Positions 16,307 to 60,406 of a stretch of 64,000 nt of DNA are shown here, piece by piece; within the stretch, counting starts at the first letter, position 1, and every line of letters begins with the position of its first letter. Below the pieces are notes generated by a model. The model did not search any database. It was not told the origin of the DNA and saw nothing but the letters and a program-made list of their open reading frames with translations. The stretch spans positions 173,739-237,738 of the forward strand of contig CAVYRH010000002.1 of the NCBI GenBank assembly GCA_963770835.1. The letters are read 5' to 3'. A program made the translations under genes and the position numbers. The DNA is from an uncultured Pseudomonadota bacterium. GTDB lineage: Bacteria > Oederibacteriota > Muellerivitia > Muellerivitales > Muellerivitaceae.

Positions 16307-16728
16307 TCAGGCCGCCGCCTTCTCCAATTTGGTTTTAAAAATAAAGTCCATCGCGGCCTGGGCCTTTGCCGCCGCTGACAAAATGGCCCGCTTGTCATCC
16401 TTCAAGACCCGAATCCAATCCCCGATGTAATCAGAGTGCTGGGTGGCATAGGGGATTCCGACCGAGGCGCAAAGGAAAGCCGCCCCCATTTCCGCCACCA
16501 GTTCCTCGAAAGCGTAGGCCCTGTCCCCGAAACGCTTCCCGTTTTCCCGGTCCAGGCGGCTCCCGTGGCCGGTCCAATGATGTTGATTCCCCGGTAGGGT
16601 TTCCTCGTGCTGGCGTTGACGGGAAGGGGAAGCCCCCTTCCCTCCCCCCAGGGCTTCTCCCAAGGGGCGACACCCCGCCCCAAATCCCCCAAAACCCTGC
16701 TGGTGATTTCCTCCGCAATGTTCCTCAT
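16307..16728 (-). pseudogene. ardC: ArdC antirestriction/ssDNA-binding protein with large internal deletion and frameshift
   Basis: N-terminus ITSRVLGDLGRGVAPWEKPW...PVNASTRKPYRGIN joined directly to C-terminal HWTGH..RLDR..YAFEELVAEMGAAFL in another frame. Confidence 0.85.
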
Positions 16729-16817
16729 TTCTTTTCCTCCCATCTGTGCCCCGGCTACTAGCTGGGGCAAACGGTTTGATTGTGCCGGGCCTCAAACAAA
16801 GGCCCGGCTTAAGTTCC

Positions 16818-17206
16818 TTAAAGTGACTCAACAAGCCTTTGGAACTCCAAAAGCTCCAAGGGGTCCAGGGCGCATCCCACCGCCCCCAGAAACTCCGCCT
16901 CGGTCAGGCCGTCTTTCGAGTCCACCAGGGCGCGGTTCTCCATGGTCCTCCATCTCGTAAAAGAAGAAGCCTCCGGCCCTCCTTCCCAAAGTGGATTTCG
17001 TACCGGCCCCAAACCTTGAAGCTCCCAGACCCGAAACGATGGATGCGCCATAACCCCTCCTCAAAAACTCCAACCTTCCTCAAGCTTCCGGATGACCCGG
17101 TCGATCTCCTCATCCGAAACCTTCCAGTCCCCTTTGGGCCTTCGGCTCCTCGGCCTGACCCCCCTTCCGGTTTTCTTTCCTGCTTCTTTTCCTCTTCCAT
17201 TCCCAT
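16818..17206 (-). pseudogene. Degraded small ORF (frameshifts and stop)
   Basis: Protein-like pieces in three frames after a GGGGGTG RBS. Confidence 0.3.
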
Positions 17207-18123: not shown

Positions 18124-18152
18124 TGACCGGCCCCCCAAGTTTGTGCCACCAA

Positions 18153-19040
18153 TTAAGTCACTCCCGGAGTAGGAGTTCCTGAGGTCGTCATGGGCAAGGT
18201 GTTGCCTTTGGGCCCCATGACGACCGCCTCCGGGGCAGGCGGTTTATACCCCAGAGAGCTGTGCGGCCGTTTCGTATTGTACTCCTTCCTCCACCTCTCA
18301 GCGAGCACTCGGCCTTCCCACACCGTGTCGAGCAGTTCGCCGTTCAATAGTTCGTCCCTGAATTTGCCGTTGAAGCTTTCGTTATAGCCGTTCTCCCAAG
18401 GGCTTCCCGGTTCGATGAAAAGGGTCTTTACTCCCACCTTCGGGAGCCAGTCCTTCACCCTCTCCGCTGTGAATTCAGGCCCATTGTCGGAGCGGATGTG
18501 CTCCGGCACTCCCCGTTGGACGAACAAGTCCGTCAGCACTGCCTGCACGTCGTCCGCCGTAAACTTCCGAGCTACCGGCAGGGCCAGGCATTCACGGGTG
18601 AACTCATCGATCAGCGTCAGGAACCGAAGAGGCCGTCCGTCGCTGGTCCTCTCGGCGACGAAGTCATAGCTCCAAACGTGGTTGGGGTGTTCCGCCCTCA
18701 ACCTGACACAGGAACCATCCGTAAACCACAACCTCCTTCGTTTCGGCTGTTTTTTCGGTACTTTCAACCCTTCCTGCTTCCAAATCCTTTCCACCCGCTT
18801 CTTGTTGACCCTCCAGCCCTCCTCCTGAAGCATCTTGGTAATCCGCTTATACCCATACCGCCCGTACTGGCAGGCCAGCCGGAGAATGGCGGTCGTCAGG
18901 AGGTCCTCATCGGGCAGGATCTGAGGGATATATCGCTGGGTGCTCCGGGGTTGGCCGAGGGCCCGGCATACGCGCCGCTGGGAGGCTCGGTGGGTTTCAC
19001 ACGCTTCCCGAACCGCTTTTCGGCGCTTTTCCGGGCTTAG
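18153..19040 (-). CDS. IS3 transposase OrfB (DDE)
   Basis: WSYDF, RSDNGPEF, GSPWENGYNESFNG, YNTKRPHSSLG. Confidence 0.9.
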   Translation of the reverse strand, partial: LSPEKRRKAVREACETHRASQRRVCRALGQPRSTQRYIPQILPDEDLLTTAILRLACQYGRYGYKRITKMLQEEGWRVNKKRVERIWKQEGLKVPKKQPKRRRLWFTDGSCVRLRAEHPNHVWSYDFVAERTSDGRPLRFLTLIDEFTRECLALPVARKFTADDVQAVLTDLFVQRGVPEHIRSDNGPEFTAERVKDWLPKVGVKTLFIEPGSPWENGYNESFNGKFRDELLNGELLDTVWEGRVLAERWRKEYNTKRPHSSLGYKPPAPEAVVMGPKGNTLPMTTSGTPTPGVT

Positions 19041-19315
19041 GAGTTTCCCCGGGCCAAGTCTTTCAGGATGCGGTTATCCAGGGAGAGGTCGGCCACCACC
19101 CGCTTGAGCTGGGTATTCTCTTTCTCCAATTCCTTTAGGCGTTTGGCCTGGTCCAGCTTGAGACCGCCGTATTCTTTTCGCCAGCGGTAGTAGGTATGTG
19201 GGGTTATTTGAAGCTCACGGCAGACTTCTTCAACAGCACGGCCTTTGGACTGCTCAACCTCGGCCTGGCGCAACATGGAAATGATCTGCTCGGCGTTGTG
19301 TTTCTTCCTTGGCAT
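19037..19315 (-). CDS. IS3 transposase OrfA
   Basis: TYYRWRKEYGG...RLKELEKEN..LKRVVADLSLD. Confidence 0.9.
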   Translation of the reverse strand: MPRKKHNAEQIISMLRQAEVEQSKGRAVEEVCRELQITPHTYYRWRKEYGGLKLDQAKRLKELEKENTQLKRVVADLSLDNRILKDLARGNS

Positions 19316-19390
19316 AAATGCCCCCTTTTTCTTGGCCCATTATAGAAAAGTATGACTTTTCAACTGGACCAGGTTGAGGGGGGCGGGTCA

Positions 19391-19726: not shown

Positions 19727-19758
19727 ATTGTCCACGATGGCTCCCCGTCGTGGACAAC
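19727..19758. repeat. 32-bp palindromic cassette-boundary repeat, copy 1 (intact)
   Basis: ATTGTCCACGATG-GCTCCC-CGTCGTGGACAAC. Confidence 0.85.
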
Positions 19759-19762
19759 CAGC

Positions 19763-20164
19763 CTATAGGTTTTTCAGAAAATTGGACGGATTCACGACTT
19801 TTACATTTTGGTAAACCCCAACATCCAACAAAGCATTATCACCCGAGACGATGAATTCAGCGCCCCCCGCCAATGCCGCTGCAATAAACTTATCATCATC
19901 TGGGTCTTTGCAAATACCTTGGACAGGCTTGGCGTTCACCAGTTCGCAATTCAACTCGATGATTTCAAGTATGGTCCCAACCTCAACGCCAGGGTGTCGT
20001 TTAGCTAAGTCTTCCAAAACGCGGTGGTACTCCTCAAGGATTTCCGGGGATGCCAATAACTTGAAGTCACCTCGTTCCCAAGATTCAATGACTTGGTAAG
20101 GCTTCCCCTTCCAGAAGATTCCAGAAACAAGAACATTCGTGTCTATTACAACAATCCTTTTCAT
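19763..20164 (-). CDS. vapC: PIN-domain toxin (VapC-like)
   Basis: VVIDTNVLVSG, CKDPDDDKFI, IVSGDNALL. Confidence 0.9.
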   Translation of the reverse strand: MKRIVVIDTNVLVSGIFWKGKPYQVIESWERGDFKLLASPEILEEYHRVLEDLAKRHPGVEVGTILEIIELNCELVNAKPVQGICKDPDDDKFIAAALAGGAEFIVSGDNALLDVGVYQNVKVVNPSNFLKNL

Positions 20165-20421
20165 TTACCGCGCCGGACACGGGTTATGGCGGTCTTCACG
20201 TCCGACGGACGCAATCCAGCTTCACTCGCTTGCTTTCGTGCGGTGGCAAGTAAACCGCCCAGATGGCTTAAGGATGGCGGGGTGATCGCTCTGAAAATCA
20301 CCGAATCACCTTGGCCGACAACGACGAACTGATCCCCTTCTTTGAGATGCAGACTTTTGCGGATGGATTCGGGAATAACTACCTGCCCTTTCGAGGAAAG
20401 CTTTGTGGTTGCTATGGTCAT
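20161..20421 (-). CDS. vapB: AbrB/MazE/SpoVT antitoxin
   Basis: TKLSSKGQVVIPESIRKSLHLKEGD; 4-bp overlap with the toxin; operator-like palindrome CCAGTAATCTTACTGG upstream. Confidence 0.9.
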   Translation of the reverse strand: MTIATTKLSSKGQVVIPESIRKSLHLKEGDQFVVVGQGDSVIFRAITPPSLSHLGGLLATARKQASEAGLRPSDVKTAITRVRRGK

Positions 20422-20508
20422 AGGTCACCTCCCAGTAATCTTACTGGTAAGAATATACGTAAATCCAGGTCATTTCAACTGTCTGTTTTCATGTCCAATA
20501 GGGGTCCC

Positions 20509-22449
20509 GTAGGGTCGAGGACTGGTGCGGTGGCCTTCTGGCTCCGTTTCCAGTCCCCGCCTCCTCGAACGTAGCGTGCGGATTTCCCGCACTACGCTCA
20601 CCTGTTGCTTTCCTGTCAAAGTTTATGTGACCTATCAGACGGGTAGCGCTTTCGGTTCTTGGTAATATCGTATTTGGTAGCTTCTGTACAACCCCAGATA
20701 CTTATATATCCACTCCCTACTCCACCTATCCCGCCCAAAACCGTCGAGCTTCTTCGCACGCATCATATGCCGTCTGATTTTATTCTCGACCCATCTTTCC
20801 ACGTAGTTAAAACAGCGCCTAGAATTCCCTATCCGAAAGTAATTCACCCACCCACGCAGTTTGGGATTGATAATCTCAATCACCCTCTGCACCGGCTGAG
20901 ATTGGAAGCTTCCAAATGTTTCCTTGAGCTTACCCAGAAGTGTTGCTCGCGCCTTCATTTTCGGCGTGAACTTCACCCCCCATTTCCCTCGACGGGTTTT
21001 CACCTGTCGAAAGTCAAACCCCAGAAACCCGAAACTTTCACCTTTCGTTAAGTCTGCTATCCGCGTCTTGTCCGTGTTGATTTGCAAGTCGAGCTTGGTC
21101 AATTCTTCAAGTAACCTTCGGTAGGCAGCCTTTGCCAACCATTCCCATTGCGGATATCCATTAACAAGGATCACCATATCGTCAGCGAACCTCGCATATT
21201 CGATATAGTTGTTCTTCCCTTGCCGAGTCACTTCTTTTGCCTTTTCCAGCATCTTATCCACCTCGTTGAGGTAGAGATTAGCCAGAAGAGGGGAAATAAC
21301 CCCTCCCTGCGGGACTCCTCTTTTGCCGCTGGCCTTCAGGATCATCCTCAACAATCTCAACACCGTTTCATCCTCAACCCTTCGGGCAACTTTCTTCATC
21401 AGAAGGTCGTGCCTTACCGTGTCGAAATATGCCTTGAGGTCTACATCAATGACTCGGGTTTTTCTACAGACGATTGCCGATGCTACCCTGTTCACAGCCG
21501 CATGAGCGGTCCGCTTGGGTCGATACCCATAGGACCCTTCTTGAAAATCGGCCTCAAAAATCGGTTCCAGAATAAACTTCAGTGCTCCCTGGACTACTCT
21601 ATCCCGAATGTTGGGTATCCCAAGGACTCTTACCTTCCCATTTCCCTTGGGTATTTCCTTCTTCCGGTTTCGAACGGGCTTATACGTGCCTTGAACTAAT
21701 TCACCCCGGATGCTTTCCAGAAACGACTCCACTCCGGCCTCCTCAATGGCATCAAACGTCACCCCATCTATTCCAGGGGCTCCGTTATTTACCTTAGCCA
21801 TTCGGTAAGCCTGTTGAAGCGTTTCCATCTTGCAAACATGGGTGTACAGTCCCCAGAAACTCCAGTTCTTTTCAGCCTTCGCTTTGACGTATATCTCTCG
21901 TCTCAGGTCTTGCAGGTTAATTGACGTCTTTTTCATACCGTCACTGCCTTCCGTTTTGTCGAGGGACTTAACAACAGCAGGGTTCCTTCGCTCCACGGGC
22001 ATTACCCCGCTTCATCGCTACCATGAACCCATCCTAAACCCTCTCACCTTCGACCGTTTTCCCGCGTCACGGTTATACGGCCTACCTTTCTCCAAGCATT
22101 TCTGCCTGGGGCAAGGAGGGTTTCTCCAGTTGCTTGGCGTGTCCTTGTCTTCGTGCCGTTGCTATCACCCCGTCGGAGTGTTCCAGCGCTTCAGCCATTT
22201 CTCCGCGCTGTCCCATGATGCTTTCGTCCCACGACGGCGGACTCAGCCTCCGAGGCAAGTGTTTTCGGGGCCACCTGTGCATTTACTTTCGTTACGGCCC
22301 GACGACTCGCTCACCATCCTTTCGATGGCTTTGTTGATGGGCTTCAGGCATTTGGTTTCCCGCTTGCCTGCCATCCTAGCTAATGGGCTTTGGCTATTAC
22401 CCATGCAAGACTATCTCTTGCTGAACACACCTGCCTTTTCTGGACGCAC
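20509..22449 (-). mobile_element. Group II intron 1
   Basis: 5' GTGCG; domain V GAGCGTAGTGCGGGAAATCCGCACGCTACGTTC; 3' CCCTAC; internal RT ORF. Confidence 0.9.
20635..22002 (-). CDS. ltrA: Group II intron reverse transcriptase/maturase (no endonuclease domain)
   Basis: PGIDG, RVLGIP..RDRVVQ, GVPQGGVISPLLANLYL, RFADD, FLGF. Confidence 0.93.
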   Translation of the reverse strand: MPVERRNPAVVKSLDKTEGSDGMKKTSINLQDLRREIYVKAKAEKNWSFWGLYTHVCKMETLQQAYRMAKVNNGAPGIDGVTFDAIEEAGVESFLESIRGELVQGTYKPVRNRKKEIPKGNGKVRVLGIPNIRDRVVQGALKFILEPIFEADFQEGSYGYRPKRTAHAAVNRVASAIVCRKTRVIDVDLKAYFDTVRHDLLMKKVARRVEDETVLRLLRMILKASGKRGVPQGGVISPLLANLYLNEVDKMLEKAKEVTRQGKNNYIEYARFADDMVILVNGYPQWEWLAKAAYRRLLEELTKLDLQINTDKTRIADLTKGESFGFLGFDFRQVKTRRGKWGVKFTPKMKARATLLGKLKETFGSFQSQPVQRVIEIINPKLRGWVNYFRIGNSRRCFNYVERWVENKIRRHMMRAKKLDGFGRDRWSREWIYKYLGLYRSYQIRYYQEPKALPV

Positions 22450-22483
22450 CGTCGTGGACAACCTCAAAAGCGACTTTGATTTT

Positions 22484-23080
22484 TCACCTTTTGTTAAATA
22501 ATTCTTTGATCGTCTTAATGGGCAAAAATAAGGTTTTAGGATCGCTCGACAATGGGACAAACCCATATTTCCGATAAAATCGGACGGCGTTTTCATCCTT
22601 GGCGTCAACCACCACGGCATATATGCCAACTTCTTCCGATAAGCGATCGGCCTTGCCAAGGGCATTCCATAAAAGCTCTCCCCCGATTCCTTGGCCTTTG
22701 TGATGCTTGTCTACCCCTAACCTTCCAATTCTAACGGCAGGGACGGGATAGCGAGGTAGGTGTTTAGAGTGGATTGCAGGAATACTTTGGGCGTCAATCT
22801 CGGAAGCAACAAGGGTGTAAAAGCCCAATGCCTTCCGGCCCCCCTGCGCCGAGGTCTCAAACCGAGGCTCTCGCTTGGGTTGTGCCGGTTCCAAATGGGA
22901 ACCGGCCCCGCCCTTTTCCACGGCCACAAAAGTTTTGCTGATATTCCGATCGTGATTTTGCCGGGCGTATTTTTGGAGATAGTCATTCAGGGCCGGTGCG
23001 CCGCAATCGAAAGACCCCAAGTCCAAATGGCGGGATATTGGCTGAATGTCCATATTCAAAGGTTTTTCAGAATGGCTCAA
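22484..23080 (-). CDS. GNAT toxin (TacT/AtaT-like)
   Basis: FDCGAPALNDYL, LPRYPVPAVRIGRLGVD, GQGIGGELL, VVVDAKDENAVRFY. Confidence 0.9.
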   Translation of the reverse strand: MSHSEKPLNMDIQPISRHLDLGSFDCGAPALNDYLQKYARQNHDRNISKTFVAVEKGGAGSHLEPAQPKREPRFETSAQGGRKALGFYTLVASEIDAQSIPAIHSKHLPRYPVPAVRIGRLGVDKHHKGQGIGGELLWNALGKADRLSEEVGIYAVVVDAKDENAVRFYRKYGFVPLSSDPKTLFLPIKTIKELFNKR

Positions 23081-23352
23081 GCGCGGCTATGCTTCTTGGC
23101 GAGGGCCAAAAGGGCCTTAGTGGGGCGGGGCGGATGCTCCATGACTTTCATGAAGGAATTCCACTCGTTTTCCGAAAGGGTGATGCGGCTTTGGGCCGTA
23201 AGCCCTTCCTGGGCGGCTTTCAAAGAATTAAAAAGCATGAAGGCGCTGAGACTTAGCCCGAAGATCGAGGCGGCTTTTTCAAGCATGGCCTTGTCCTTCG
23301 GTCGGATGCGAATTTCGATTCGTTGTTCCCTTGATTGCGTTTCCGTCGCCAT
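23077..23352 (-). CDS. DUF1778 RHH antitoxin (TacA-like)
   Basis: RIEIRI...KAMLEKAA...SLSAFML...ITLSENEW..F...PP.PT.AL. Confidence 0.9.
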   Translation of the reverse strand: MATETQSREQRIEIRIRPKDKAMLEKAASIFGLSLSAFMLFNSLKAAQEGLTAQSRITLSENEWNSFMKVMEHPPRPTKALLALAKKHSRA

Positions 23353-24965
23353 AAACCCTCCTTATACCTTTAAAAGAAGTATACATTAACGTACGGATGA
23401 TGTCCACACATAAGGTGTAGAGTAGAACACAGGCGCAGTAATGTGCAGGTTAACCCTTGGCTTGTTTCCCTGTTTCCAGTTCCGTGCCCGTTTAGGATCG
23501 CCCATCATTCCGTTTCCTGCATCCCCTCATCAAACCGTACGTGACCTTTTCGATCATACGGCTTTCCGACAACCTTTCATCCGGCGGCATACGAGCTAAA
23601 AGTTGGAATCCAGTTCAAACCAAGGCGTTTCACTTCCTCGATCGGCCATGTTCGTCCTTCCCAGGCGTACTTACGCCTCCGGAACAAAGTCAGCCTCTCC
23701 AGTACGTAAAATTGGAGCTTAGAAAAGTACTGCTGGCTATCCCCGATACGAAAATAGTTGGCCCATCCCCTCAACACCGGGTTCAAAGCCTTCGCTAAAT
23801 CCTCCATTGGAGATAAGAGTCGCTCTCGGCCCGCCGTCATCTGCTTCACCTTCTCGGCGATTTTCTTCATAGCCTTCCGACTCGGCCAGCTCAGGCAACA
23901 GGTCTTTCCCAATCCTACCACTGGCATACCTACTTGAAAATGAAACCCCAGGAAGTCAAAACCTTCCTTTGCAGGCCCCATTTCCACCAGCCGTGTCTTT
24001 TCCGGGTGCAGTTCGAGCCCCATACGTCCCATCAATTGCTTGATGACCTCCAGGCTCTTTTCCGCATTGGCTTGGCTACCGCACAGCACCACAAAATCAT
24101 CTGCGTACCGTACCAGCCTTCCCAATTTCCTGTGCCTCTTATTCCAAACCTTGTCCAACAAGTGGAGGTAAACATTGGATAACAGCGGTGAAATTACTCC
24201 GCCTTGGGGCGTCCCTTGGACGGTCGGCCTAAGCCTACCTTCCTCAAACACACCCGCCTTCAGCCACCCTTGGATCAGGTTCAAAATATTCCTGTCACTG
24301 ACCCTCTGGCGCACTAGCACCATCAGTTTGTCATGGTCGATGGAATCGAAATACTTCCTGATGTCTCCATCCACTACCCATGTGTACCCCCCGTTGATCC
24401 ACTTCTTGATCTCCCGGTGGGCCTGTTGGGCTCCGCGTTTTGGCCGAAATCCAAACGAGCCTTCCAGAAAGTCCGCCTCAAAAATAGGTTCTACCACCTT
24501 CCGGCAAGCCGCTTGGACTACCCGATCCCGGATTACCGGAATTCCCAACGGTCTCTTACTTCCGTCAGGCTTGGGTATTTCCACTCGTCTCACCGGCTTA
24601 GGCCGGTACTTCCCAGATTTGAGTTCCTCCTGGATTCCCTTCAGGAATGGAATAATCCCTACCTTCTTTTCAATCCATTCCAGTGTTTCCCCGTCCACTC
24701 CTCCTTGGCCTTTGTTAGCCTTCACCTGTTTCCATGCCGCTACCAGGACATCCCATCGGGTCATCCTGTCGTACAGCACATGGAACCTTCGGTTCGGGCT
24801 CCTCTTGGCCGCTCGGTATAGCTCCCTTTGAAGGATTCGCGCCTTGTCTTCGGAGATAACATGAATGAGCCAGCGGCCTGCGTAAAATAAAACGGGCCTT
24901 GTTGAAGGGCCCTAATTCGCGGGTTGCTCCTTGAGGGAGCCTATCCGCATACGGAGGGCTGGCTC

Positions 24966-26069
24966 ATGGAAAATAATATCACGGTGGTCGGGTTGGATGT
25001 CCATAAGGATACGGTGGTAGGTGCGGTCCTGCCGGCTAGGGCCGAAAATGTGAAGGATATTTTTACAATCGAGAACACCCCAAAAGCATTGGGGAAAATG
25101 CTGGGTAAGTACGAAGGACGAGGGTCAATAACGTTTGTGTACGAGGCGGGCCCTTGTGGATATGACATCCACCGGCAATTAACCCAAAAGGGGTTGAAGT
25201 GCGTCGTAATCGCCCCTGGGAAAATTCCAGTGAAAGCCGGGGATCGGGTGAAGACAGACCGCCGAGATGCGGAAAAGTTGGCCCGTCTTTGGAGGGCGGG
25301 AGAGCTGACGGAAGTGCGGGTTCCGACCATCCAAGAGGAAGCCTGTCGGGATCTGGTTCGAGTTCGTGAGGATGCCCTAGAAGACCGGCAAAAGGCCCGG
25401 CACCGGTTGTCGAATTTCTTTCTTCGGCAAGGTCGTATCTTTCGAGAAGCTAAGAATTGGAGATCAGCCCATGAGGCATGGCTGAAAACCCAAAAGTTCG
25501 AACCTCTGGAACTGCATGAGACTTTCGAGGCATATGTCCGCGGGAAGCAAGAGGCAGATGAGCGGTTGAGGAGTTTGACGAGCCGAGTGGAGGAGATGGC
25601 CAGCCAAGAACCCTACAGGAAACTGGTCAAGCATTTGAGGTGCCTGAAAGGGGTTGATACCTTGAGCGCCATGACCTTGGCGGTGGAAGGCCAAGATTTG
25701 AGGCGATTTGAGAGCGCTCGTAATTTCATGGGTTACGCGGGTTTGGGGATATGTGAAAGCAGTTCAGGTGGAAAAATCCGTCGGGGAGGAATCACCAAGA
25801 CCGGGAACGCCCATTTGAGACGGATTCTTGTGGAATCGGCTTGGAGTTACCGCCATGGGAAGTCGGTCGGCGTGGTTTTAGAAAAAAGGCGGGAGGGTTG
25901 TCCGGTGGAGATTTTAAAGATCGCCCGCAGAGCACAGGATCGTCTGTACAAAAAGTTTCTAAAAATGACCCAACGTAACAAGCCCATCCAAAAAGTAGTG
26001 GTGGCCGTAGCCCGGGAGTTGGCTGGATTTGTGTGGGCCATCGCCCAGGAAACAACAGGAATGGTTTAA
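24966..26069 (+). CDS. IS110 DEDD recombinase/transposase
   Basis: VGLDVHK, YEAGPCG, VKTDRRDA, ESSSGG, ITKTGNAHLR, VAVARELAG. Confidence 0.93.
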   Translation: MENNITVVGLDVHKDTVVGAVLPARAENVKDIFTIENTPKALGKMLGKYEGRGSITFVYEAGPCGYDIHRQLTQKGLKCVVIAPGKIPVKAGDRVKTDRRDAEKLARLWRAGELTEVRVPTIQEEACRDLVRVREDALEDRQKARHRLSNFFLRQGRIFREAKNWRSAHEAWLKTQKFEPLELHETFEAYVRGKQEADERLRSLTSRVEEMASQEPYRKLVKHLRCLKGVDTLSAMTLAVEGQDLRRFESARNFMGYAGLGICESSSGGKIRRGGITKTGNAHLRRILVESAWSYRHGKSVGVVLEKRREGCPVEILKIARRAQDRLYKKFLKMTQRNKPIQKVVVAVARELAGFVWAIAQETTGMV

Positions 26070-26099
26070 CAAGGTCATGAAGGAAGAACCCTGTTTCCG

Positions 26100-26270
26100 G
26101 AAGCTTGGCAACGATTTGGAGAACCCTCGGTACAACTCTGTGGCGCAAAGGCCTAAGCCTGCGACGACCCACGATCAGAGATCGAGGCAGCTCCCGACGA
26201 ATGAAAATCTTGCGTCCCTGGAACCAGCAATGGGTCTAACACGCGAATATCAGTTTGATTCATCGTCGAA
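26100..26270 (+). ncRNA. Putative IS110 bridge RNA
   Basis: Two internal loops carrying target-matching (ACAACTC, TCAGAG) and donor-matching (ATCT, ATATCAG) segments. Confidence 0.65.
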
Positions 26271-26923
26271 ACAAGCCGGGCTTTCGAGATCAGGGCTTTT
26301 CGCAGGGCCTTGAGGTGGAAAAGAGTAGGATAAAACCAAAGGAAAAACCAGCGGGCTTGACTGGCTCATTCATATCAGTTGTTGGCCTTTTGGGGCATGC
26401 TCCAGCGCCTCCCTTTTCCGGTTGCTTGGTTGAAGCAGGGGTCCTTCCCTCCAGGTGGTTTTGTTGTCCACCCTTCAGCGGTAGTGTGACCCCCTCCGAC
26501 TTCCTCTCGCCCTTACCACTTTTCGGTTTTAGCCTTATAGCGGCAAGTCTTTTGGCGGGTAGGATCTCCCAGGTTGCTTGCATAGCCTTTCCAACATTCC
26601 GTTCCCCATACGCCGGAGGATTTGCCCCGCTTGCTCCAGATTCTTTAGCGGGATAATAGCCTTCGCCGGTAGACACGCGGCTCGGCATCCTCTTGCACCT
26701 TTCGGTGTCCCTTTCACGACGCGGCAAGATTCACTTGATGTTGCGGACTGCTGAATTGTTCCCTCACCAAATGAGGTTTATGACCCCGTTTCGGGCAGGA
26801 CCTCTCGGCCCTACGCCGGGGGCTGACTTCCAGGCTCTCTGGCGATTACCTGGTCAGGACTTGGGCTGGCCCTCCTCGACCTACTCCCTCACCTGCTGGC
26901 TCTGCAAACCTTCGCTGGCACGC

Positions 26924-26953
26924 TGTCCACGAAGGGTCCCCGTCGTGGACAAC
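26924..26953. repeat. Palindromic repeat copy 3 (first 2 bp displaced to 23415-23416 by intron 2)
   Basis: GT|TGTCCACGAAG-GGTCCC-CGTCGTGGACAAC. Confidence 0.85.
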
Positions 26954-27060: not shown

Positions 27061-28115
27061 GCCGAATTCACGGAGTAAGTGCAACACTTCGCCGGAAGAC
27101 TTCCGCCGGAGTTTGAAAGCCCAGACACTTCTTAGGCCTGTTATTGAGGGACCTTTCGATTGCCTTGAGCTTCTTGGAGGACACTTTAGCAAGGTCAGTC
27201 TTTTTTGGCAAATAGCGGCGAACAAGACCAATGATATTTTCCACGGAACCTTTTTCCCAACTGTGGAAAGGAGCGCAGAAAAAGGATTTTGTACCAAGGA
27301 CTTGATTGGTTTCCAGATGGTTGGTGTTTTCGGTTCCATTGTCATAGGTCAGACTCAGGCGAGCCTGTTGCGGGAAGCGGCTTAAAGTACGGTTAAGGCT
27401 ATGACTCATTTGGAGAGCTGTCTTTCGTTTGAGCTTTCCCAGCTTGGAGAACCGGCTTTGACGCTCGACGAGAGCGCGTACAGCAGCCTTACTTTGACGG
27501 GAAACCATAGTGTCCGTTTCCCAATGGCCAAACTGCTTGCGATGCTTGACGGTCTCTGGTCTCTTGTCGATGGAAACACGGCCTGGGATATGGCTTTTGG
27601 CGTGCCTGTGGCTGTGACCAAAGGCGAGCCGCCGCCGGTGGTGACGGACCAGGCAAGGAATCAGATCAGTGGCCTCAGCGTAAATCCACTGGTAGATGGC
27701 TTCGGGACCAATGGTTTGCTTAGGCCGCAGGTGGCCTAAACGGCCTGAAATGAGTTCGGGAGACCAACCGCGTTTCAATTGGCGACGGACGTAGGCACGA
27801 ATTCGTTTTGTTTTCAGGCGTAAACGACGAGCCCGTTGTTGGTTACGGGCCACATACCGTTGATGGGCCCGATGGGAAAGATAGTAACCAGAACGGATGG
27901 GGGGAGCGTTGCGCTTGAGTTCCCTGGAGAGGGTGGAAGGAGACCTCTTCAAGGCGCGGGAGATGGCCCGAAGGCTAAGGCCTTTTCCCTTCAAGACGGA
28001 TAAATGATCTCTTTCCTCAACACTTAAATGCTTGTAGTTCTTTTTCATGGCCGCATATCCTATGGATGCGGCCTTCTTCAGGCACTAAGTGTTGCACTTA
28101 CTAATGGAACTCGGG
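27061..28115 (-). mobile_element. IS30-family element
   Basis: Imperfect terminal IRs sharing AGTAAGTGCAACACT; TAA flanks both ends. Confidence 0.88.
27068..28048 (-). CDS. IS30 transposase
   Basis: YKHLSVEER...RSPSTLSRELKRN, WSPELIS, GHWETDT, LTYDNGTE, WEKGSVEN. Confidence 0.93.
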   Translation of the reverse strand: MKKNYKHLSVEERDHLSVLKGKGLSLRAISRALKRSPSTLSRELKRNAPPIRSGYYLSHRAHQRYVARNQQRARRLRLKTKRIRAYVRRQLKRGWSPELISGRLGHLRPKQTIGPEAIYQWIYAEATDLIPCLVRHHRRRLAFGHSHRHAKSHIPGRVSIDKRPETVKHRKQFGHWETDTMVSRQSKAAVRALVERQSRFSKLGKLKRKTALQMSHSLNRTLSRFPQQARLSLTYDNGTENTNHLETNQVLGTKSFFCAPFHSWEKGSVENIIGLVRRYLPKKTDLAKVSSKKLKAIERSLNNRPKKCLGFQTPAEVFRRSVALTP

Positions 28116-28333: not shown

Positions 28334-28432
28334 TTGACTTTGTCTTGTGGTTAGGAGGCAGGAGCAAAAAAATTTAAATTTTTATTTGTTTACAATGCTT
28401 TTTACAGAAGAGAGTGAAACCGGGAAATGGCA

Positions 28433-28469
28433 TTGGCAAGGTTGCACTCTACCACTGAGTTATTCCCGC
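28433..28469 (-). pseudogene. 5' half of tRNA-Gly(GCC); probable att junction
   Basis: GCGGGAATAACTCAGTGGTAGAGTGCAACCTTGCCAA followed by non-tRNA sequence. Confidence 0.88.
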
Positions 28470-58418: not shown

Positions 58419-60406
58419 GTAGAGTAGAGCACTGGCGCAGTAACCCACAGGAAGACCCTTGTCTGTATCCACCGTTTCCAGTTTCGTGCCCGTTTAGGGT
58501 TCTCCGTAGTCCTGTTTCCAGCGCCCCCTCATCAAACCGTACGTGACCTTTTCGATCATACGGCTTTCCGACAACCTTTATTTCGGCGGCATTCAAGCTC
58601 TTTGGGCTTGGTGGGACAGGAAATAAAGGCCAAGACGTTTGAATTCATCTCCGTTCATAGACCAATTTCGTGCCCGTAAGCCATGCTTATGCTTTCGGAA
58701 CAAAACCAGTCTTGTGACCGTATAAGAATCAATATTGGAAAACTGTTTCCAGCTTGTGCCCACTTTGAAGTATTGGGCCCATCCCCTCAATATCGGGTTC
58801 AGGGTTTTCACCAATTCCTCCAATGAGAGCGAGAGCCTCCACCCTTCAGAAGTCACCGCCTTGATCTTCTCGGTAATCTTCTTCATGGCTTTTCGGCTCG
58901 GCCAGCTTCGAACGTATGCCTTCCACCCCTTCTTCCTTGGTTGGCACATCTGATAATGAAAGCCGAGAAAGTCAAAACCGTCCTTCCCTAGGCCCATCTC
59001 TACCAGCTTCGTCTTTTCCGGGTGTAGTTCCAATCCCATCCGCTCAAGTAGACCCTTGAGCACCTTCAGGCTTTCTTCCGCCTTTTGATGGGTTGGACAT
59101 ACCACCACGAAGTCGTCCGCATAACGAATCAGTTTCCCTAATTTCTTGTGCCTCTTGTCCCAAATCTTGTCCAGCAGGTGAAGGAATATATTGGAGAGAA
59201 GAGGAGAGATTACCCCTCCCTGAGGTGTGCCTTCTTGGGTCAGCAAAAGCTTCCCCTCTGTTAGCACTTCCGCTTTCAGCCATCCCTCGATCAGCTTCAA
59301 AACTTTCTTGTCACTGATCCTTTGTCGCACCAGCACCATTAATTTGGCGTGATCAATGGAGTCGAAATACTTTCGAATATCTCCATCCACCACAAACCGA
59401 TACCCTCGGTTCACCCATTTCAGAATTTCACCGTGGGCTTGATGGGCTCCGCGCTTGGGCCGAAAGCCGTAAGAACCTTCCAGGAAGTCAGCCTCAAAGA
59501 TAGGTTCGACCATCTTCCGGCAGGCCGCCTGCACCACTCGGTCCCGTATGACCGGTATACCTAATGGTCGCTTCCCGCCGTCCGGTTTCGGGATTTCCAC
59601 CCGTTTGACTGGTTTTGGCCGATATGTCCCCGCCTTGAGTTCTTCCTGGATTTGCTTGAGAAAGAGTCTTACCCCTTCTTTCTCTATCTTCTCCAAACTT
59701 TCTCCATCCACCCCTCCACGCCCTCGATTCGCCTTGACCTGTTTCCACGCCTCGATGAGTACATCCCCTTGGATGAGCTTGTCGTACAACGCATGGAAAC
59801 GCCGGTTCGGGCTTCTCTTGGCCGCTCGATATAGCTCCCTCTGGAAGTGGCGCACTTTGTCTTCTGAGTTATTAGCCTTTTCAGGCATTCCCCATGCTCC
59901 TCTTCTTTTGGTCGCTTGGTTGAAGCAGGGGCCCTTCCCTCTGGGAAGTTTTGTTGTCTTCCCTTCATCGGTATTACTGCCCCCTCCGACTTCCTCCTGC
60001 CACGTTTCCCCTTCAGTGCCACCTTATAGGAAGCGCTCTTTTAGCAGGTAGGATCTCCCAGGTTGATATATCAGCCTTTCCCACATTCCGTTCCCTCATA
60101 CGCCGGAGGATTTGCCCCATCCATTCCCGTTTTACCGGATGGGATTGTTGCCTTCGCCGTAAGACACGCGGCTCGGCCTCCTCTGTAGCCTTTCGGCGGA
60201 CACTTCACGACGCGGCAGGATTCACTTCATGTTACGGACTGCGGGATCGTTCCCTTTCTCATCAAAGGTTTATGACCTCGTTTCGGACAAGGCCTCTCGA
60301 CCTTGCCACGGAGGCTGACTTCGGGGCCCTCGGGCGGTTACCCCGTCAGGATTTGGCTCATATCAAGCCTCACCTGCTGGCTGCTACACCCTTATTCCTG
60401 GCACGC
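58419..60406 (-). mobile_element. Group II intron 3
   Basis: 5' GCGTGCCAG; same domain V as intron 2; 3' CTCTAC. Confidence 0.9.
58593..59888 (-). CDS. ltrA: Group II intron RT/maturase (intact, no endonuclease)
   Basis: RPLGIP, GTPQGG, RYADD, FDFLGF. Confidence 0.94.
   Translation of the reverse strand: MPEKANNSEDKVRHFQRELYRAAKRSPNRRFHALYDKLIQGDVLIEAWKQVKANRGRGGVDGESLEKIEKEGVRLFLKQIQEELKAGTYRPKPVKRVEIPKPDGGKRPLGIPVIRDRVVQAACRKMVEPIFEADFLEGSYGFRPKRGAHQAHGEILKWVNRGYRFVVDGDIRKYFDSIDHAKLMVLVRQRISDKKVLKLIEGWLKAEVLTEGKLLLTQEGTPQGGVISPLLSNIFLHLLDKIWDKRHKKLGKLIRYADDFVVVCPTHQKAEESLKVLKGLLERMGLELHPEKTKLVEMGLGKDGFDFLGFHYQMCQPRKKGWKAYVRSWPSRKAMKKITEKIKAVTSEGWRLSLSLEELVKTLNPILRGWAQYFKVGTSWKQFSNIDSYTVTRLVLFRKHKHGLRARNWSMNGDEFKRLGLYFLSHQAQRA

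Follow-up and report, generated by a model that had tools for sequence, protein, structure and literature searches.

Two kinds of endonuclease-less group II intron come close to the system described here. Group IIC-attC introns (S.ma.I2, E.c.I7, Kl.pn.I1) parasitise the recombination sites of cassette arrays, as set out in the sections consulted of PMC3001079 and PMC7923331, and RmInt1 and RmInt2 of Sinorhizobium meliloti, both of class D, recognise a multicopy target through the exon-binding sites EBS1, EBS2 and EBS3 with a bias towards the lagging-strand template (relevant parts of PMC4615759 and PMC5894124). Introns of the IIE/IIF type, whose open reading frames (ORFs) fall into varieties g1-g4, are marked by an alpha-prime element in a terminal stem-loop of Id3 and by a 5-nt domain V loop, and they possess an EBS2 (PMC3753933 and PMC3552965, consulted in part). 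Here we analyse a window of 64,000 nt (positions 173739-237738 of contig C2 in genome G000, assembly GCA_963770835.1, from an uncultured soil bacterium) in which two group II introns, intron 1 and intron 2, occupy copies of a 28-bp palindromic site that separates gene cassettes. At least four insertion points of this site (11|12, 19|20, 26|27 and 28|29, numbered by the flanking site bases) are used by lineages whose reverse transcriptases (RTs) do not form one clade. Judging from the sequences, introns 1 and 2, which are unrelated and endonuclease-less, probably reach their fixed points by EBS1/EBS2 retrohoming at the replication fork.

Results

Two different introns in one palindromic site

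The consensus of the site is TGTCCACGACG GGGACC CGTCGTGGACA, with a hypervariable stretch in the right arm (bases 16-22). The genome holds 89 copies scoring at least 15 bits, against none in the shuffled genome; within the host family, a group of uncultured soil bacteria, 24 of 30 further genomes contain the site, and outside the family 0 of 30 do. A preliminary description of this DNA had thus rightly called the repeat recurrent and conserved.

Intron 1 runs on the minus strand from 22449 to 20509 (termini GTGCG...CCCTAC) and splits site copy 2 after base 11 (position 11|12), leaving the 5′ exon TGTCCACGACG (22460-22450) and the 3′ exon GGGACCCCTATTGGACA (20508-20492). Its ends are confirmed by six intact copies of a second target, which align gap-free, and by an intron-free allele on a contig of run X2 that joins 20507 to 22449, skipping 1941 nt. 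The intron had been placed at the border between arm and spacer: the insertion after base 11 is correct, but it is a border only if the palindrome is read as 11+6+11, whereas under a 13+2+13 reading it lies inside the left arm. The hairpin proposed for this intron is present as GTCC-GCCGTCGTG-GGAC, and its loop CGTCGTG (22236-22230) forms 7/7 pairs with the exon end CACGACG.

Intron 2 runs from 26923 to 23417, directly behind site copy 3 (26951-26924), starting with GCGTG and ending with CTCTAC. In its loop, CGTGTCTAC, the pairing TGTCTA-TGGACA with one G-U pair that had been described holds and is in fact one pair longer, the 7-nt EBS1 TGTCTAC matching GTGGACA at 7/7 positions. We rejected a start two bases later, at GTGCC, because the EBS1 pairing reaches ...GGACA and because the dinucleotide (GC/TC) does not vary within a lineage; members of the family start with GCGTG or TCGTG and end with CTCTAC or CTCTGC, and the g2 reference likewise starts with GCGTG. 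The two introns are different elements, as had been supposed (their RTs are 38% identical), and each targets the repeat through an EBS1 that matches its own exon. The absence of an endonuclease domain from both RTs is also borne out; all three RTs of introns in the window, including that of an intron 3 described below, contain RVT_1 and GIIM only, with no HNH. An EBS2, additional to the loops of the preliminary description, is present in introns 1 and 2 (Table 1). The Rfam models of group II intron domain I match at 22287-22423, 26736-26872 and 60227-60365 and those of domain V/VI at 23492-23566 and 58419-58568, all on the minus strand.

The loops covary with their targets

Relatives of intron 1 were gathered from family genomes, metagenomes (36 loci) and plasmids. 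Over 14 distinct EBS1 loop variants, the last seven loop bases pair with the intron's own 5′ exon at 83 of 98 positions, while the permutation mean is 45; 0 of 20,000 permutations reach 83, and shifted registers give 24-43. The EBS2 loop, again in 14 variants, forms 59 of 84 pairs with exon positions -9 to -14 (mean 34, 0/20,000; other registers 25-41). Domain I was folded with RNAalifold, in place of a covariance model, on 17 sequences: EBS1 lies in a terminal loop and EBS2 in the preceding internal loop of domain Id (Id3), and 16 of the 29 pairs in the model show compensatory changes. Together with the exon covariation, this placement upholds the proposed EBS1 identity.

The family of introns 2 and 3 behaves alike. 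EBS1 pairs 7/7 with 25 of 27 distinct exons, the remaining two being intron 3 exons with 6/7, and EBS2 tracks the site variants (AAGGG-CCCTT, ATGGG-CCCAT, ACACC-GGTGT and, in intron 3, GTGTC-GACAC). Both copies of the window intron 2 type (AAGGG) occupy CCCTT sites; the commonest EBS2 variant, ATGGG, is located in CCCAT or CCCGT sites, and a copy in genome G010 with EBS2 ACACC occupies a divergent GGGAGGTGT site. Of the 38 distinct 3′ exons in the family, 37 have A as their first base, compared with 44 of 76 empty sites (p 2e-6), which fits an EBS3 that is U. Introns at 19|20 and 26|27 each carry an EBS1 and an EBS2 that match the target, and their removal restores the site exactly; the pairings are TGGGTC-GACCCA (L014, L018) or CGGGTC-GACCCG (L157) at 19|20 and TCCACGA-TCGTGGA (L160) at 26|27. 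L151, a relative of the 19|20 lineage with another loop, lies at a non-site exon.

By pairing and covariation, the loops of introns 1 and 2 are EBS1. Homologues at unrelated sites, which the preliminary description would have held against this identity, do occur, but solely among distant relatives of intron 1 with other EBS loops, several of them in domain V of other introns; near relatives occupy 11|12 at seven metagenome loci. That a different loop goes with a different site supports the identity instead of refuting it. Other group II introns are the target of five of these relatives (L053, L071, L144, L177, L178), which are inserted in domain V and have an EBS1 matching it.

Census of insertions

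Inside the site lie 24 of the 30 distinct intron insertions of this genome. Intron 1 accounts for 12 copies, 99.9-100% identical, in 11 distinct contexts: nine in the site and two antisense in a multicopy insertion sequence (IS) transposase gene, of which seven more copies are empty. We take this gene to be IS5-type. For the intron-2 lineage we counted 17 copies, many of which lack an ORF, in 16 contexts, 14 of them in the site, and a C11-type intron is in the site (1/1) while intron 3 is not (0/2). C3:1720 and C24:22295 were counted once, being an assembly overlap with 4.2 kb common to both contig ends. Among strict (Watson-Crick) targets of intron 1, 86 of 102 belong to the site.

Rfam domain V/VI matches were obtained in 13 of 31 family genomes. 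Where the 5′ end is readable, 24 of 29 distinct insertions outside this genome are in the site, one is in tandem behind an in-site intron and four are elsewhere; this tally leaves out L011, L152, L155, L156 and L161 (5′ end unreadable), two class C introns and L234, a false start-motif match that was dropped. The in-site insertions comprise six at 11|12, four at 19|20, one at 26|27 and 13 at 28|29. Degenerate and non-palindromic targets are used as well (the poor stem of L020, the IS gene, intron 3).

A number of unusual arrangements were seen. Three sites of G000 hold both intron 1 at 11|12 and an intron of the intron-2 lineage at 28|29 (C3:1720/3679, C11:10/1969, C20:4033/2074). L158 (G014 C7) is a head-to-tail pair of intron-1-lineage introns with GCGCG starts in one site. 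L012 (G027 C3), an 11|12 copy of the same lineage, has three extra bases at its 5′ junction, which reads as the site up to the central GA and then intron base 2. The site is also inserted, at position 10|11 and with an apparent AC duplication, by a short pyrimidine/purine-tract element (about 60 nt in the copy read) that is presumably BoxC-like; this further parasite of the 28-bp site has copies in G000 at C5:308118, C5:317908, C11:105383 and C11:115068.

Orientation of the insertions

Each of the 35 short cassettes examined is oriented with the site, as are all in-site introns of this genome, and 32 of 32 intron copies, including six or seven outside sites, are on the strand that carries most long-ORF coding within 40 kb. 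The intron-2 lineage uses 13 of 41 forward targets here against 0 of 62 reverse ones (p 1.6e-6). Genome G027 holds three insertions on the reverse face of the palindrome, and in two of these cases (C21, C9) the arrays run against the flanking genes (plus-strand ORF share 0.05-0.24 and 0-0.32). With replication direction taken by proxy, the strand data fit the lagging-strand-template rule described for RmInt1/RmInt2 in the consulted parts of PMC4615759 and PMC5894124 better than a rule tied to the direction of the site.

Intron class and RT phylogeny

Quick-mode maximum likelihood trees were built with eight references, one or two per class, taken from classes other than IIC-attC, g4 and other class F. 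The RT of intron 1 groups with B.th.I3 (49% identity; Shimodaira-Hasegawa-like approximate likelihood ratio support 99-100), the one g2 reference included; Table S2 of PMC3552965 lists B.th.I3 as ORF variety g2. A separate clade, placed among former class F or unclassified lines, unites the RTs of introns 2 and 3 with that of the C11 type; with deep forks of 83-90, in a tree free of g4 and other class F references, intron 2 falls firmly with no named variety. The best reference identity of the intron 2 RT is 41% (Ni.ha.I1), and its closest titled relatives belong to candidate division FCPU426. The 19|20 RT is a third line. The 26|27 intron is without an ORF, and its 5′ end resembles that of L167; in the RT tree L167 falls with the class E reference, which suggests a class E origin for the 26|27 intron. 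The approximately unbiased (AU) test rejects both a grouping of introns 1 and 2 with class C, represented by the S. meliloti GR4 intron (p 1.6e-5), and the union of all site-targeting RTs in one clade (p 3e-58). L047, which is in the site and has the same EBS1 as intron 1, is placed by its RT with the non-site L039 (95*) and not with intron 1. This may point to mosaicism between RNA and ORF or to retargeting that happened more than once.

In the RNA, alpha-prime lies in a terminal stem-loop that follows the EBS1 hairpin on its 3′ side and shows compensatory pairs (in intron 1, TGGCT complementary to AGCCA; the stem-loop of intron 2 was read by eye), and the domain V loop has five nucleotides (GAAAU in intron 1, GAAAA in intron 2). 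A search of solved structures with the RT returned IIC, CL and ML RTs only and was not class-informative. With EBS2 tracking the target in both, introns 1 and 2 are, by these structural predictions, IIE/IIF-type homing introns and not class C-attC introns. The analogy with class C-attC introns, which had been offered as mechanism, is therefore not supported, in view of the 7-bp EBS1, the covarying EBS2, the insertion mostly in cassette-gene direction, the degenerate and non-palindromic targets and the AU rejection.

Neighbouring elements of the window

The RT gene of intron 2 is cut by an IS110-family element, which the preliminary description does not mention. This element, presumably IS1111-like, is a parasite of a parasite: each of its six copies in the genome is inserted in an intron of the intron-2 lineage, always at the same point of domain IV. 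Since IS-free alleles exist elsewhere (runs X1-X3 and G027), the window copy of intron 2 likely depends on IS excision or on RT supplied in trans. Intron 3, with EBS1 TGTCTTA and an EBS2 GTGTC that pairs with GACAC, serves as an internal control; its 81%-identical relative at C11:107425 (EBS1 TGTCCAC) is inside the site.

Promoter-like sites lie behind the 3′ ends of intron 1 (20478-20450, for the AbrB/MazE-PIN cassette) and intron 2 (23406-23378, for the TacA-GNAT cassette), and relatives contain both cassettes without the introns and beside other neighbours. The sole resolvase-domain gene of the genome (275 aa, C17) has a site 18 nt behind it. In the 16 loci examined of 20 fetched, the distance from the 3′ end to a site is 15-71 nt for nine short serine recombinases, a tenth has an intron-split site there, and none of the six long-form loci has one. 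In one case (L009/L191, G020 C9:135100-137200) an intron-1-lineage copy fills the site next to a short serine recombinase. Exchange takes place within the site in 41 flank-sharing pairs; positions 13-15 never vary, so that the 11+6+11 and 13+2+13 readings are not separated. An attC or integron identity of the site was rejected, as its consensus matrix lacks attC boxes (RYYYAAC...GTTRRRY) and tyrosine recombinases are not array-linked, 11 of 12 matches being at least 9.7 kb from any site or on site-less contigs and the twelfth belonging to a multicopy integrase family.

No recombinase stands beside the array of the window, and the element that contains the array is bounded by a tRNA-Gly duplicate of 45 bp (window 28425-28469 and C2:170229-170273), with a tyrosine integrase at C2:170397. 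The array is in an integrated element of about 32 kb with TrbL/VirB4-like genes and is flanked by IS3-type (18130-19390) and IS30 (27068-28048) elements, the former truncating the last (GNAT-like) cassette; an ArdC remnant lies at 16307-16834.

Table 1. Positions of the introns, their exon-binding sites, the site copies and the cassettes in the window
Feature	Position	Strand	Remarks
Site copy 1	19729..19756	-	whole 28-bp palindrome, 46.7 bits
Cassette	19763..20421	-	AbrB/MazE-type antitoxin (20161-20421) and PIN toxin (19763-20164)
Site copy 2, bases 12-28	20492..20508	-	3′ exon of intron 1
Intron 1	20509..22449	-	group II intron, IIE/IIF-type RNA, 1941 nt; RT probably variety g2 (one reference)
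Intron 1 RT/maturase ORF	20635..22002	-	455 aa, FADD motif, no endonuclease domain
Intron 1 EBS1	22230..22236	-	CGTCGTG, pairs with site bases 5-11
Intron 1 EBS2	22257..22262	-	ACACTT, pairs with exon -9 to -14 (site bases 1-3 and three flanking bases)
Site copy 2, bases 1-11	22450..22460	-	5′ exon of intron 1
Cassette	22484..23352	-	TacA-like antitoxin (23077-23352) and GNAT toxin (22484-23080)
Intron 2	23417..26923	-	group II intron, IIE/IIF-type RNA, GCGTG start, 1984 nt minus IS, at 28|29
Intron 2 RT/maturase gene	23577..26398	-	YADD, no endonuclease domain, IS-interrupted 22 nt after ATG
IS110-family element	24854..26376	+	transposase 24924-26069, 13-bp sub-terminal inverted repeats
Intron 2 predicted EBS3	26610..26610	-	U
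Intron 2 EBS1	26669..26675	-	TGTCTAC, pairs with site bases 22-28
Intron 2 EBS2	26709..26713	-	AAGGG, complementary to bases 16-20 in CCCTT-variant sites
Site copy 3	26924..26951	-	whole, 49.1 bits, 5′ exon of intron 2
Intron 3	58419..60406	-	relative of intron 2 (RT 68% identical), other EBS1/EBS2, non-repeat target

Discussion

The palindrome is likely a shared landing pad on which several intron lineages arrive by base-pair homing and not by recognition of a hairpin. In the pathway that we propose, the intron RNA would reverse-splice into the lagging-strand template, with EBS1 and EBS2 pairing to the exposed target strand, and nascent DNA would prime reverse transcription as for RmInt1. The palindrome would then give the 28|29 lineage a target in either orientation of an array. 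Each lineage may have gained the site separately through mutation of its EBS loops: a site that is conserved and intergenic, is present in about 100 copies per genome and appears to be renewed by cassette traffic would be a low-cost target, which could explain why it was acquired repeatedly.

Several points weigh against this reading. The predicted EBS3 of intron 1 (A, 22165) mismatches base G12 of the site and matches the second target, in the IS transposase gene. If G-U pairs are freely allowed, there are 352-2050 off-site positions open to intron 1 and 552 to intron 2, almost all of which are empty, so that contacts between protein and exon or purging selection must add specificity. Pairing is poor at three loci (L013, L043 and the second, tandem copy in L158), and the EBS2 register of the intron-1 relatives was picked after seeing the alignment. 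As to the replication fork, its direction is a proxy: the GC skew, by which 26 of 32 copies fall on the G-rich strand, is too weak to delimit replichores, and ORFs of the introns themselves count in the ORF tally. The preference of intron 1 for forward over reverse targets is by itself not significant (9/64 vs 0/22, p 0.10), and the third reverse case in G027 (C3) lies in mixed gene orientation. The RT trees, finally, are quick-mode trees with essentially one reference per class.

A different way to reach the site would be recognition of the folded hairpin, in the manner of class IIC-attC introns on the bottom strand of attC, with EBS pairing being secondary. The site does fold (-16.6 kcal/mol as RNA, z -3.2), intron 2 lies directly behind the stem and both RTs are without an endonuclease. 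However, the intron-binding sites IBS1 and IBS2 of intron 2 are inside the stem, where folding would hide them, and insertions are also found in a degenerate site with a poor stem (L020) and in the non-palindromic targets of the IS gene and intron 3. Since in addition EBS2 covaries with the target, the RTs do not group with class C and the true class C introns of the family stand behind terminator-like hairpins (L159, L162), we regard hairpin recognition as very unlikely. Only slightly better placed, and still improbable, is the idea that insertion is wider and that enrichment in the site reflects survival, genic insertions being purged and those at cassette joints tolerated. The hundreds of empty wobble-compatible targets would agree with it, as would the promoter-like sites kept behind the introns in both window cassettes and the six of 30 insertions in this genome that are outside the site. 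Yet most strict Watson-Crick targets of intron 1 are themselves in the site, the copies are near-identical and so recent, and survival alone would not yield EBS loops that match the site in four lineages, each at its own exact register.

The preliminary description had also suggested that the introns may lock cassettes in place. Insertions at 11|12, 19|20 and 26|27 cut the site and would presumably block exchange there. The 28|29 insertion, at the commonest position, leaves the 28-bp core whole, which makes locking by intron 2 geometrically impossible. This confines plausible locking to the three internal positions, and nothing that we found supports it: 0 of 18 segments behind intron-2/3-family ends in this genome occur twice with their intron, as a co-moved unit would, and one of the 18 has an intron-free 88% homologue. 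That the introns are maintained by the host to act as locks or regulators, freezing useful cassettes such as the two toxin-antitoxin modules or closing the entry site on the recombinase side, has little probability in our eyes. Three of four positions do break the site, one copy in G020 fills the site beside a short serine recombinase, and three sites of this genome hold two introns; against this stand the intact site at 28|29, the uniformity of the intron 1 copies, the intron-free window joint in run X2, the intron-free homologues of both window cassettes in other genomes and the unrepeated downstream segments. The near-identical copies and the empty allele point to recent selfish spread, and any locking would be a side effect of parasitism and not a host function.

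The same data could be extended, as a possibility we hold to be rather doubtful, to an arms race that shapes the arrays. The right arm would then vary partly to escape EBS pairing, EBS2 would chase the variants CCCAT, CCCTT and GGTGT, and insertions in the core would fix the order of the cassettes, in the extreme by closing the entry site next to the recombinase. If this were true, the four positions would be a footprint, left in nature, of a gene-capture system other than integrons, and retroelements would have specialised on cassette joints a second time, independently.

The introns are an independent mark of the 28-bp site as a DNA element that is functional and long-lived, and they appear to document natural retargeting in fine steps, to single site variants and to both faces of the palindrome. 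EBS2 of IIE/IIF introns is dispensable for splicing in vitro, according to the part of PMC3753933 consulted; for a role in homing, the EBS2-target combinations found here are ready test pairs.

Our searches of the open literature gave no description of this cassette-joint intron system among the listings examined. As far as the sections consulted of the cited papers go, IIC-attC introns are one monophyletic class C lineage with an EBS1 of 3-4 bp and no EBS2, inserted on the bottom strand, opposite to the cassette genes, behind a hairpin upstream of IBS1 (PMC3001079, PMC7923331), whereas several non-C lineages with a 7-bp EBS1 and an EBS2 use four positions of a non-attC site here, mostly co-oriented with the cassettes apart from the three reverse cases in G027. 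RmInt1 and RmInt2 target insertion sequences, one lineage per target, in contrast to a cassette joint common to at least four lineages; RmInt2 uses both inverted repeats of ISRm17, one target always being on the right strand, and forms head-to-tail copies like those of L158 (PMC4615759, PMC5894124). In our tree the RTs are not of class D. The introns of the window share alpha-prime in the Id3 stem-loop, the 5-nt domain V loop and EBS2 with the IIE/IIF group, for which the consulted parts of PMC3753933 and PMC3552965 describe no cassette-site targeting, and the intron 2 lineage has no firm match to any of the eight references. The IIB introns (CL1, class E) in integrons or CALINs of halophiles are likewise non-C, located in arrays and in cassette direction; the relevant section of PMC7923331 gives three cases, two of them fragmented, and reports no conserved target or repeated homing at an exact register. 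The only cassette-joint specialists known before were class IIC-attC introns, which read a hairpin, and it now appears that their niche has been filled repeatedly by other intron classes, through plain EBS1/EBS2 pairing, in a cassette system that is not an integron.

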